A stretch of 64,000 nt of DNA from the IMG/VR virus record IMGVR_UViG_2974731583_000001, positions 34,668-98,667 of that record. One strand, written 5' to 3'. Positions within the stretch are counted from its first letter, which is position 1, and each line of letters opens with the position of its first letter. Both the position numbers and the translations under genes were made by a program. This document shows, in pieces, positions 3 through 62,745 of this stretch. The notes beneath the pieces were generated by a model that was not told where the DNA came from, ran no database searches, and saw only the letters and a list, made by a program, of their open reading frames with translations. The DNA is from a virus (Duplodnaviria > Caudoviricetes).

Positions 3-929
3 GTATTAAATAGAATGAACAATACGTCAACCAACACAGAAGACACTACCGATACAGAGGAACACGAAGATGTTTCAGAAGAAGAGATAACTGAAGCTAA
101 TCAGGTTAGTACTCTGTTTGACGCAATCGGCGAGTCTATGGGTTGGAATATGGCGGAAATTGACGACAACGAAAAGCCAGTTACTGTAGACGAACTTACT
201 TATTATCTACAAGAAGTAGTAAAACAAAACTCAATTCCTGACTATGGCGACGATCGAGTTCGTCAGCTTGATGAATACGTTAAGAATGGTGGTAAGTTCG
301 AAGACTTTTATCAAAAATAGCAACAGGCTATTTCTATCGACAACCTCGACATGGATGACGAAGCTAATCAAAAGGCAGTAGTTCGCGAGCTTCTACAGCG
401 TAGCGGCTATACTGAAGATCAGATTAACAATAAAATTAATCGTTATCTTGATGCTGATATGCTTGTAGAGGAGTCTGAAGACGCATTAGAACGCCTTAAA
501 CACATTCGTGAAAACGAAATAGAGCAGCAACGTTTACAACAAGAACAGATTGCTAAACAGCAAGAAGAGAACTCTCGTAAGTTCTTTGATGACGTTACGT
601 CAACAATAAACCAGCTTACTAATATTCGTGGTATTCCGATTCCAAAGGAGGATCGTAAATCTCTATTGGACTATATATTCAAAGTAGACCAGAATGGAGA
701 AACACAATATCAGAAAGACTTTAATGAAAATCTTGCTAAAAATCTAATTGAGTCGGCTTACTTTACAATGAAGGCTGATCAATTTGTTTCTAATGCAAAA
801 AAGACTGGTGAAACATCCGCTGCAGAAAAACTTAGAAAAATGTTAAGACATACGACTAAAAATCACAGTTCGTATAATGTCAATGAAAAACAAAAGTCAG
901 TTATAGACCTTGCGTCAGGACTATTTTGA
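3..929 (+). CDS. Acidic/coiled-coil structural protein upstream of MCP (putative capsid scaffold); 5'-truncated, one in-frame TAG at 318-320
   Basis: Track ORFs 15..320 and 351..929 are in the same frame and are joined by TAG plus QQAISIDNLD (FYQK*QQAISIDNLDMDDE). The frame is open to the window edge and ends in TGA. Position just before MCP is typical of crAss-like phages. Confidence 0.75.
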
Positions 930-46879: not shown

Positions 46880-47261
46880 TTTGTTTCTGACTTAAAAGTT
46901 CTTGAATCATTTCATCTACCTGCTTGTGATTTCTCACAAGATAACATGTCATTTTAGATCTGTGTCGTTTCAGGTAATATTTAAACAATTTATATCTTAA
47001 AGGAAATGAATCTCCTATAAGACCTTTACATTCTACCACAAACCCTTTTCCTATAAAGTCTGGTAGATATGTAATAGGGCGAATCTTTTCGCCCAAATAC
47101 TCGAACTTTGGAAGTAGTGTAAAATGCTTTGGCTCATATTTCACTGGTATACCAGCTTTCATAAAAGCTTCATAAGTATAGAGTTCGAGTTTACTCCTAA
47201 AATGGATTCCATACTTATCGACCGATGTCGCATTCTTTACCCTACCACCCTGCTTTTTCAT
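46866..47261 (-). CDS. Small PD-(D/E)XK endonuclease (DUF1064 / T7 endonuclease I-like resolvase)
   Basis: FRSKLE; YEP..F.L; TYLPDF; VVECKG. Confidence 0.75.
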   Translation of the reverse strand: MKKQGGRVKNATSVDKYGIHFRSKLELYTYEAFMKAGIPVKYEPKHFTLLPKFEYLGEKIRPITYLPDFIGKGFVVECKGLIGDSFPLRYKLFKYYLKRHRSKMTCYLVRNHKQVDEMIQELLSQKQNEKQ

Positions 47262-48247
47262 GGATCATAGTCTCTTGTATAAGGGGTTAATGTTTTATCT
47301 AGCCATGCTTTCACATCGCTAAATGAATTATTTTTTACAGCATCAGATATGTCTTTTGCGTTAAATTTTTTGTTTACAAAGAACGCATGTAGCTTATAGC
47401 GTTTACTATAATCTCTTGCTTTTTGCATTCCTGTTTTGTCACGATCATACAATATAAGCATTTTTTTCCATTTACTCCGTAAAGACTTTAATATGTCTTC
47501 TGGAATAAATGTGGTTTCACTTGAGCTAGCTATAGCATAAAATCCCATCTCATACAAACACATTACATCCTTTAGAGATTTTGTAATGATTAGGAGATCA
47601 CCACCCTCTTTTGGTAACTCGGCTAGTCCCTGTACGTGCCGATTTGTCAGATTGGTACGCCATTTAGTATACTTAGAGGCTAATGGACGATAAATCTTAA
47701 ATTTATCATACACTTTATATGCATACATAGGACTATCTTCTTTGTAGGTTCCTCTGACGACTCTATTACAAAGAAAGTATTTTATGCTAAATACATTATA
47801 TCGTCGTAATGTATCAATAGATATATGAAATTGCTTCCAATATCTTTTGTCTATCTCAGTGAAAGGTTGACGAACAATACCGATGTCTGTATCTACTCTA
47901 GATGTATATTCTTTTGTAGTATTAATTTGTACATTAGTAGGATTAATCCTTCTAACTATACGCAACAGTTCTCTTTCGAGTTCATCTCTTGTTTGTAACC
48001 CCTTGTAAAGCTTCATAAATTTTAGTGCATTACCAGATACTCCAGTACCGTGGTCTTTAAACAATAAAACACCTTCTCTACTATAAAATATAGCAAATGA
48101 AGGCATCTTATCATTATTTCTTAATGGACTATTTATAAGCTTTCCTGGCTTTATGTTGCCTAAATAATATGAGTATATTGTATAATCATCAACTTTATTC
48201 AATAAGTCTTTTAGACTCATTGTAATTGCTGTTTTTGTACTATACAT
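47258..48247 (-). CDS. DNA primase (DnaG-like TOPRIM, crAss type)
   Basis: SPLR.ND..PSF; FKDHGTG; IITKSLKDVM; SET; LYDRD.TG; KDISD. Confidence 0.85.
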   Translation of the reverse strand: MYSTKTAITMSLKDLLNKVDDYTIYSYYLGNIKPGKLINSPLRNNDKMPSFAIFYSREGVLLFKDHGTGVSGNALKFMKLYKGLQTRDELERELLRIVRRINPTNVQINTTKEYTSRVDTDIGIVRQPFTEIDKRYWKQFHISIDTLRRYNVFSIKYFLCNRVVRGTYKEDSPMYAYKVYDKFKIYRPLASKYTKWRTNLTNRHVQGLAELPKEGGDLLIITKSLKDVMCLYEMGFYAIASSSETTFIPEDILKSLRSKWKKMLILYDRDKTGMQKARDYSKRYKLHAFFVNKKFNAKDISDAVKNNSFSDVKAWLDKTLTPYTRDYDP

Positions 48248-48265
48248 GGTTTAAAACTCTTTATG

Positions 48266-48401
48266 TGGCTCCGTAGGGAATCGAACCCTACGTGGACTAG
48301 TAACTATGTCATCATAAAACAACTATGAACAAACGAACCTTTCGTTATGATATTAGATATTAAGTTGTCCATGTCTGTGTTTCTCAACACCCTGACGAGC
48401 C
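48266..48401 (-). ncRNA. tRNA/tmRNA-like structured element, 136 nt, non-canonical
   Basis: 5' GGCTC pairs with 3' GAGCC-A. Perfect T-arm GTAGGG-TTCGATT-CCCTAC. GTGTT-GAGA-AACAC hairpin. Long TGGAC/GTCCA-closed stem in place of the anticodon arm. Confidence 0.55.
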
Positions 48402-48464
48402 GTGGGAGGGGCATTTCACCCCTCTAGGTCAATAGAATTGACTGCTCCACCAACCTGCAAGCGA

Positions 48465-49073
48465 TTAAAAAGGTAAATCGTCTGCAGGGTTTTTATTTTC
48501 ACTCACAGTGTCCGGAATAATGCTTGGTGGGAGATTAAGCGGGTCATTTTGTTCTGTATCTGCGGATACAGGACGCTCCATAAGATCCTTTTTAAAGATC
48601 TTTATCTGCGAGTCTGCTATTTCCATTTTCTCAACAAAAATACCGTTCTGACTTACTTGGGTATAACCCTTTTTGTCATAACATACCTTAAGTCGCAATG
48701 GCTTATTGGTACCGATCATTGGGTCAAGAATACCTTTTACCCAATTGATCATGTCTATAAAAGTATTTAGTTCAGCGTCTGGACGCTTATCATAGAAACA
48801 ATCAATGATTTGACAGATGCGTCCAAACTGAACGTTATCGCGTCTCTGTAATTCTTCGTCTGTCTTAATCCATTGATTCTTTTCGTTTTTCCATTCCGTC
48901 ATACTTGCGGTCTGGCCGTCCGAGTTTTCGAAGATAATCTCTAAGAAATCTCGACCGTTTTGGGTTTTGTTTACATTTACCTCTTTAAGGGTTATATTTT
49001 CGTTAATACCTACAGGCATGTAAGAACCTGTGAATTCCTGATTATTTGTTGTTGCTGTTTTTGTACTATACAT
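48465..49073 (-). CDS. Single-stranded DNA-binding protein, 202 aa (start corrected to 49073)
   Basis: C-terminal acidic DDLPF tail. The start at MYSTKTATT avoids overlap with the upstream gene and has an AT-rich leader. Confidence 0.7.
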   Translation of the reverse strand: MYSTKTATTNNQEFTGSYMPVGINENITLKEVNVNKTQNGRDFLEIIFENSDGQTASMTEWKNEKNQWIKTDEELQRRDNVQFGRICQIIDCFYDKRPDAELNTFIDMINWVKGILDPMIGTNKPLRLKVCYDKKGYTQVSQNGIFVEKMEIADSQIKIFKKDLMERPVSADTEQNDPLNLPPSIIPDTVSENKNPADDLPF

Positions 49074-53706: not shown

Positions 53707-53790
53707 GACTCTCAGGTTCTTAGTTATACTTAGTGCGTGTGGGGGTTATAATCCCCCTACAGCTATATTATGCTGTACACGCTTCACATG

Positions 53791-55160: not shown

Positions 55161-55279
55161 AATTTGATATTATTAAATTAAACATGTGTCGTTATTACGA
55201 CTTAGTGACTAGGTGGGAGCATCGAATCCCTCTGATATAATATCAGCTGTCCACATACAAATCTAGTCTATCGATAACT

Positions 55280-62609: not shown

Positions 62610-62745
62610 AATCAAACAAACAATATGCTAGATAAACTAGGGTGGTTATTAACCGTACGTAACGATGTTCAGACACCAGCTGTTTTAGTGGGGATATTAG
62701 GTTTCGCTCCTGTGACAACATAAATTGTCTATATCCCCAATATTG

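Follow-up and report, generated by a model that had tools for sequence, protein, structure and literature searches.

What kind of RNA lies directly upstream of the primase gene in this phage, and what might it do there? The stretch of phage DNA that we analysed, 64,000 nt in length and hereafter called the window, carries at this place a tRNA-like element of 136 nt (48266-48401, - strand). A sequence-only reading had described it as a miniature tmRNA or tRNA mimic between genes for SSB and primase, and had offered a decoy for SmpB or an amber-sensitive regulator of primase among its possible roles. The parts named in that reading are all in the sequence: the GGCTC/GAGCC-A acceptor, the T-arm with its TTCGATT loop, the GNRA hairpin, the long arm, and a 22-codon ATG..TAG mini-ORF (Table 1). 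The long arm does join the T-arm closely, as had been stated, but with a spacer of 0 nt and not of 1-2 nt. The absence of G3-U70 was also correctly noted, position 3:70 being C-G. CCA is not encoded, the bases after A48266 being CAU. RNAfold gave the four-way junction from the window sequence alone at -39.2 kcal/mol (z = -3.1), and none of 200 shuffles was as stable. Canonical T-arms of the GGUUCGAWUCC type occur five times in the whole 98.7-kb genome, three of them in tRNAs, one in a tmRNA-like region and one in the element. We could find no support for the label of SSB given to the upstream gene, which has no match in Pfam, PHROG or PDB and whose GenBank relatives are entered as 'hypothetical protein'.

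Table 1. Coordinates of the tRNA-like element, its parts and its neighbours in the window
Feature	Position	Strand	Remarks
DNA primase gene	47258..48247	-	PHROG 12622 DNA primase, E 1.4e-31; GenBank annotation of cr273_1
Spacer from discriminator to primase ATG, 18 nt	48248..48265	-	predicted leader of processed primase mRNA
Acceptor 3' strand GAGCC and discriminator A48266	48266..48271	-	
T-arm CGUAGGG-UUCGAUU-CCCUACG	48272..48292	-	canonical loop UUCGAUU; 7-bp stem (6 bp in relatives)
Long arm in place of anticodon arm	48293..48371	-	AU-rich irregular interior, without anticodon loop
Long-arm base UGGAC/GUCCA	48371-48367 / 48297-48293	-	
22-codon ATG..TAG frame in long arm	48304..48372	-	judged non-coding
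D-like arm	48373..48396	-	3-bp stem GUC/GAC around AGG, GNRA-capped 5-bp hairpin and one A
GUGUU-GAGA-AACAC hairpin	48377-48390	-	GNRA loop GAGA
AGG in D-like arm	48391-48393	-	invariant
Acceptor stem 5' strand GGCUC	48397..48401	-	pairs with 48267-48271
Upstream module	48402..48453	-	single-stranded UUGGUGGAGC, hairpins GUCAA/UUGAC and GAGGGG/CCCCUC (loop UGAAAUG); always accompanies element
Upstream conserved crAss-like gene	48465..49073	-	homologues in 30 crAss-like records, all 'hypothetical protein' or unannotated

The window matches the crAss-like phage cr273_1 (NC_055904; Suoliviridae, Oafivirinae, Buhlduvirus), which came from pig faeces, at 99% identity over a 1.1-kb query. Homologues of the element were found in cr124_1 (NC_055899), in cr7_1 and, among related phages, in many contigs from IMG/VR and metagenomes; one layout is common to at least six types of sequence in related crAss-like phages of the Oafivirinae. 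From its 5' end this layout consists of a 5-bp acceptor, GUC, AGG, a 5-bp GNRA hairpin, A or AA, GAC (GC in type A) and A, followed by the long arm, a 6-bp T-stem with UUCGAWU, one linking nucleotide, the 3' strand of the acceptor and A. The helices are kept while their letters change. The acceptor reads GGCUC/GAGCC, GGCUG/CAGCC, GGCUA/UAGCC, GCGGU/ACCGC or GACUA/UAGUC, with double changes in four of the five pairs, and the D-hairpin reads GUGUU/AACAC, GUGUC/GACAC, AUGUC/GACAU or AUGUU/AACAU around a loop that is always GNRA (GAGA, GUGA). The base of the long arm has double changes in all five pairs (UGGAC/GUCCA, AAGGG/CCCUU, AGAAUGG/CCAUUCU, GGAAUGG/CCAUUCC, AGAUAGG/CCUAUCU) and the T-stem in four of six (GUAGGG/CCCUAC, AAGAGG/CCUCUU, GCUAGG/CCUAGC, GUUUGG/CCAAAC). 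The T-loop and its G53-C61-type closing pairs (GG-UUCGAUU-CC) are invariant in 28/28 homologues, as is the AGG of the D-like arm in the 28-sequence alignment; the discriminator is A in every homologue displayed, and the next base is C wherever the 3' flank is displayed. Position 3:70 is C-G in 27 of the 28 homologues and G-C in the remaining one.

As the sequence-only reading had proposed, a covariance model was built from related phages (20 sequences), and conservation and covariation were both found; the model scores the window element at 105 bits and a divergent member from another clade, L014:1903-2012, at 59.6 bits. In the 28-sequence alignment of at least six types, which was fitted to the covariance model and leans towards the model's own structure, 96.4% of cells pair, 16 of the 23 pairs have changes on both sides, and the covariation score is 0.414 versus 0.03-0.06 with the partners slid, none of 500 shuffles scoring as high. 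RNAalifold on an unfitted MAFFT alignment regained the acceptor, the GNRA hairpin and the T-arm with 7 compensatory pairs, and single-sequence MFE folds presented the same junction in almost every type folded. These figures derive from about six known independent lineages. The window's own type is a single sequence, the cr273_1 record being identical, and the putative inner pairing AUCAUAA/UUAUGAU rests on it; scans of viral and metagenome sequences for further variants of this type gave only types B, C and L014 and chance matches. On this evidence the element is a structured RNA with a function, and the compensatory changes in all helices refute the reading as simply a decayed tRNA. Judged from these comparisons, the element is conserved, non-decoding and tRNA-like, and the term tRNA mimic was well chosen, since the acceptor, the T-arm, the elbow GG and the topology of the junction are all kept by covariation.

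What the family has in common is best seen in its smallest members. In L126 a 43-nt version follows the same upstream module and consists of a 5-bp acceptor, a 12-nt linker with GG, a 6-bp T-stem and A; in cr131_1 the version is 42 nt long and has 6+6 bp, and in cr130_1 there is a plain hairpin of 11-12 bp with a 7-nt loop, then ACA. The acceptor/T stack is built from 5+7 bp in the window, 5+1+6 in types A-D, L014 and L126, and 6+6 in cr131_1. The coaxial stack of about 12 layers, the T-loop and the single-stranded 3' tail after the discriminator, by which a t-element or minihelix is recognised, are all present. From these minimal versions and the expanded types, the common denominator is therefore the top half of a tRNA, and selection keeps only the acceptor/T stack of about 12 layers, the T-loop, the GG elbow partner and an A discriminator with C after it, CCA not being encoded. 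RNase P, RNase Z and the CCA-adding enzyme read these parts of a tRNA, and minihelices are established substrates of RNase P and of the CCA-adding enzyme. The acceptor varies in sequence from type to type, and this speaks against an aminoacylation identity common to all. The element is the expanded, four-way-junction member of a group of 'top-half' tRNA mimics of Oafivirinae crAss-like phages, which lie between a conserved hypothetical gene and the gene for primase. It shares with canonical tRNA (RF00005) the four-way junction, the GG elbow partner, A73, the 12-layer acceptor/T stack and a T-arm with a UUCRANY loop and G53-C61 closing pair. However, it has a 5-bp acceptor in place of one of 7 bp, a remodelled D-arm in place of a 4-bp D-stem, no 7-nt anticodon loop and no variable loop (4 nt or more in a tRNA), and it falls below threshold in every detector run.

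We compared the regions upstream of the primase gene in related phages, and a T-arm with an acceptor was found within 90 nt of the ATG in 54 of 76 distinct regions, in the same slot and the same orientation. These 54 comprise 12 tRNAs called by ARAGORN (Leu-UAA, Val, Thr, Trp, Lys, Gln) and 42 tRNA-likes that it did not call. The real tRNAs of the relatives thus resemble the element in genome position and orientation, and since tRNAs and mimics both occupy the primase slot they are interchangeable there. The element lies between two - strand genes and is co-oriented with them, the position expected of a processing signal at a gene boundary. In the relatives, the spacers from discriminator to ATG cluster at 13-16 or 20-27 nt, and, as a point against a processing role, this fixed spacing could simply be due to a promoter or leader that is conserved and lies downstream of a permissive 'tRNA island'. 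A head-to-tail array at L014:1644-2321, arranged like a tRNA operon with 4-5-nt spacers, holds at least four tRNA-likes and a tRNA-Asn and includes the divergent homologue of the window element. No intrinsic terminator or sigma-70-like promoter was detected in the gap by a scan whose promoter search covered the sigma-70 type and not those of Bacteroidota or phages. A replication origin at the AT-rich arm was considered and rejected, the GC skew turning at about 44-46 kb, where the direction of transcription flips.

A short AT-centred palindrome stands directly before the primase ATG in most relatives (GCTTATAAGC, ACTTATAAGT, GCTTAAGC), its window counterpart being GTTTTAAAC-like (48226-48265, -), and a conserved start, ATGTATAGTAC, follows it. 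This palindrome could be an operator or a leader signal.

From its anatomy and position we propose, with moderate confidence, that the element may act in cis as a processing signal for RNase P and RNase Z, similar to the t-elements of mitochondria. The element would be co-transcribed with the genes on either side, host RNase P would cut immediately before G48401, and the cut after A48266 would be made by RNase Z or by 3' trimming. Such cuts would part the message upstream from a primase mRNA whose leader is 18 nt long, and would release the 136-nt RNA, which the CCA-adding enzyme could then tail. The D-like GNRA hairpin and the base of the long arm probably stabilise the tRNA-like L-shape. This is the best reading of the conservation of the top half only, the fixed slot, the arrays, the gap without a terminator or sigma-70-like promoter, three further minihelix-like folds in the same operon and the precedent of t-elements.

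In plant mitochondria, the ends of mRNAs are signalled to RNase P/Z by t-elements (Forner et al. 2007, PMC1920247). They resemble the element in being non-decoding tRNA-like folds at mRNA boundaries, where RNase P and RNase Z presumably cut them, although they belong to an organelle and not to a phage of gut Bacteroidota. The phage element also differs in its perfect T-loop, its GNRA-capped D-like arm and its long variable arm. Mitochondria, like Bacteroidota hosts, are not known to rely on Shine-Dalgarno initiation. Non-aminoacylated signals for RNase P and RNase Z that stand beside another RNA are also found in mascRNA (MALAT1) and in the TMER tRNA-like units of murine gammaherpesvirus 68. 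The likeness lies in a tRNA-like module next to another RNA, and the difference in that those systems are eukaryotic or herpesviral; the Rfam mascRNA match to the element is weak (14.7 bits, E 7) and reflects the T-arm only.

A bare minihelix would suffice as a pure cutting mark, yet six types keep the GNRA hairpin, the AGG and the base of the arm, which hints at something more. Moreover, in Burzaovirus-like phages the element is not beside the primase gene but upstream of a conserved non-coding stretch of 212-232 nt. These two observations give some weight to a role in trans for the excised 136-nt RNA, which we regard as somewhat unlikely. It would be stable and CCA-tailed, and would either bind host readers of the tRNA top half or elbow, with tRNA-directed defence nucleases, processing or modification enzymes, SmpB and EF-Tu as candidate partners, or provide a scaffold for the variable arm. 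The helices that go beyond the minimal minihelix and are kept by covariation speak for such a role, as do the invariant A73, T-loop and AGG, and the fast evolution of the arm is what would be expected of a part tuned to the host. In its interior the arm is AU- or U-rich and 36-80 nt long; even phages that are nearly identical differ in it by indels, and types C and D have simply a large U-rich loop there. However, no conserved sequence or loop was found in it across types, and no anticodon-like loop in any type examined. Its longest perfect match within the phage genome was 11 nt (E>1), not above chance, and an antisense role within the phage was rejected on this result. The varying acceptor leaves no common aminoacylation identity, and in relatives versions of 42-43 nt suffice at this position. 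With its two extra helices kept by covariation, the expanded form is the family's best candidate for a function beyond cutting. That a trans-acting, CCA-tailed RNA, as decoy, sponge or 'tRNA scaffold', together with the UGGUGGAG module, makes up a new phage RNA system is a tentative and rather doubtful proposal.

Perhaps the element instead serves as a 5' processing and stabilising module for the RNA that follows it, similar to a tRNA-linked small RNA, but we find this quite improbable. The RNA that follows would be, with the same low likelihood, the structured non-coding stretch of about 220 nt in Burzaovirus and the primase mRNA in the window. In its favour, the conserved 212-232-nt stretch after the element in Burzaovirus-like loci (e.g. 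L002:3218-3448) is hairpin-rich, has several GNRA loops and ends in a stem and a U-run. Against it, this stretch, which has no Rfam match, is absent from the window, and the reading is in any case a special case of the processing model and no true rival to it.

Burzaovirus-like loci have the upstream module before the element too, and its hairpins covary there (GGUAA/UUACC, GGUGA/UCACC; GGAGG/CCUCC). Most related loci contain a motif related to it, UGGUGGAG, which precedes arrays of tRNAs and tRNA-likes (e.g. L002:3040-3094, L003:2920-2950), while L019 and L042 have it immediately ahead of the primase gene; in other clades its form is GGUCAGUGGUGGAGG-ACUGAC-loop-GUCAGCCCC. UGGUGGAGC is the exact complement of a GCUCCACCA-type 3' end of tRNA-Ala and tmRNA. 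Two pairings that we considered were rejected. A covarying closing stem that would make the module a 'mini-tRNA' has no counterpart in type A to the window's GUGG/CCAC, and the pairing of UGGUGGAG with the CCA-tailed 3' end of the element reaches at most 6 bp and fails in cr131_1.

Known RNA classes do not account for the element. Neither ARAGORN nor Rfam, in its gathering and E-value modes, called it in the window or in the relatives. In 20 related loci the only Rfam family found was tRNA, and the non-decoding tRNA-likes of crAss-like phages have no family in Rfam. YrlA and other bacterial Y RNAs do not fit either: the 5' and 3' ends are the acceptor itself, with no Ro-binding end stem, and no Y-RNA match was found in Rfam.

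A miniature tmRNA or SmpB decoy, or a mini-ORF that regulates primase through its amber codon, is very improbable. The geometry does resemble the tRNA-like domain of tmRNA: beside the acceptor and T-arm, the D region is reduced, a long helix stands where the anticodon arm would be, and the variable loop is nearly absent, with 0-1 nt ahead of the T-arm. However, at 136 nt the phage element has no G3-U70 (among the homologues this position is C-G, or once G-C), and it is without a conserved tag frame, a resume codon and pseudoknots; it was not called as tmRNA by ARAGORN, and the Rfam tmRNA model gave only 9.8 bits, on the T-arm. The genome moreover has a separate probable permuted tmRNA at 284-531 (-), scored by Rfam tmRNA_permuted at 40 bits (gathering 47, E 4e-6) and called as permuted tmRNA by ARAGORN too, with the tag GNINVVDYTGLQEAA*. 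This region (genome C1 189-562, -; locus L153) lies just beyond the right end of the window. The amber reading would suit a phage that recodes TAG and carries a tRNA-Sup(CUA), but it fails because the mini-ORF is not conserved: in type A it has 12 codons and ends in TAA, in type C its length is 16 codons, and in type B and L014 the ATG is missing. A coding role for this frame was rejected for the same reason.

The tRNA-Sup(CUA) is a normal tRNA outside the window, at genome C1 12606-12679 (+), and the element was rejected as a suppressor tRNA in disguise. That tRNA is consistent with TAG recoding of late genes. An extra tRNA at genome C1 189-257 (53.6 bits) had been missed by ARAGORN.

A functionless relic, either a decaying tRNA pseudogene or an intron-interrupted tRNA gene, would fit the failure of ARAGORN and Rfam to call the element and the real tRNAs that relatives have at the locus, among them a tRNA-Leu(UAA) in cr131_1 with the same GGCU../..AGCC-A, but it can hardly be right given the compensatory changes in five of five helices across at least six types, the minimal versions without any anticodon arm, and an insert whose removal rebuilds no anticodon stem-loop and which is too short and unstructured for a group I intron.

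Other tRNA-like folds were observed in these genomes. In the same operon of the window, the intergenic folds at 53734-53782, 55206-55268 and 62689-62738 (-) are possible smaller relatives, each with a closing stem that stacks on a 3' hairpin (loop of 7-8 nt), then A-CUAA(G/A), and one of them with a near-canonical UUCGAUG loop. In L027, L028, L030, L045, L052 and L058, tRNA-likes of about 70 nt lie about 45-130 nt after the UGGUGGA motif. Their order is a 6-7-bp acceptor, AUGGUA or ACGGUA, an H-type pseudoknot that replaces the D and anticodon arms, and a T-arm, and the second stem of the pseudoknot covaries (GUGUG/CACAC, AUAUG/CAUAU, UGCACA/UGUGUA, UAUAUGC/GCAUAUA, UAGAC/GUCUA). Those at L021:2139-2204, L021:2391-2474, L018:2319-2474 and L026:~2295-2477 have normal acceptor, D and T arms together with altered anticodon regions, in which the loop is a GCAA tetraloop, is enlarged to 17 nt, or carries inserts of 95-130 nt; some of these still exceed the Rfam threshold for tRNA.

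The literature that we searched holds no description of non-decoding tRNA-like RNAs in crAss-like phages, and in the papers searched tRNA punctuation is not described for phages, although it is known from mitochondria. Crassvirales rank with the most abundant phages in the gut of humans and animals, and to our knowledge their gene expression at the level of RNA is almost unstudied. If host RNase P and RNase Z are indeed recruited by the mimics, tRNA punctuation would be the means by which these phages organise their long transcripts. This would also explain many of the 'missing' or 'pseudo' tRNA calls in crAss-like genomes, and would give annotators a new class of feature.
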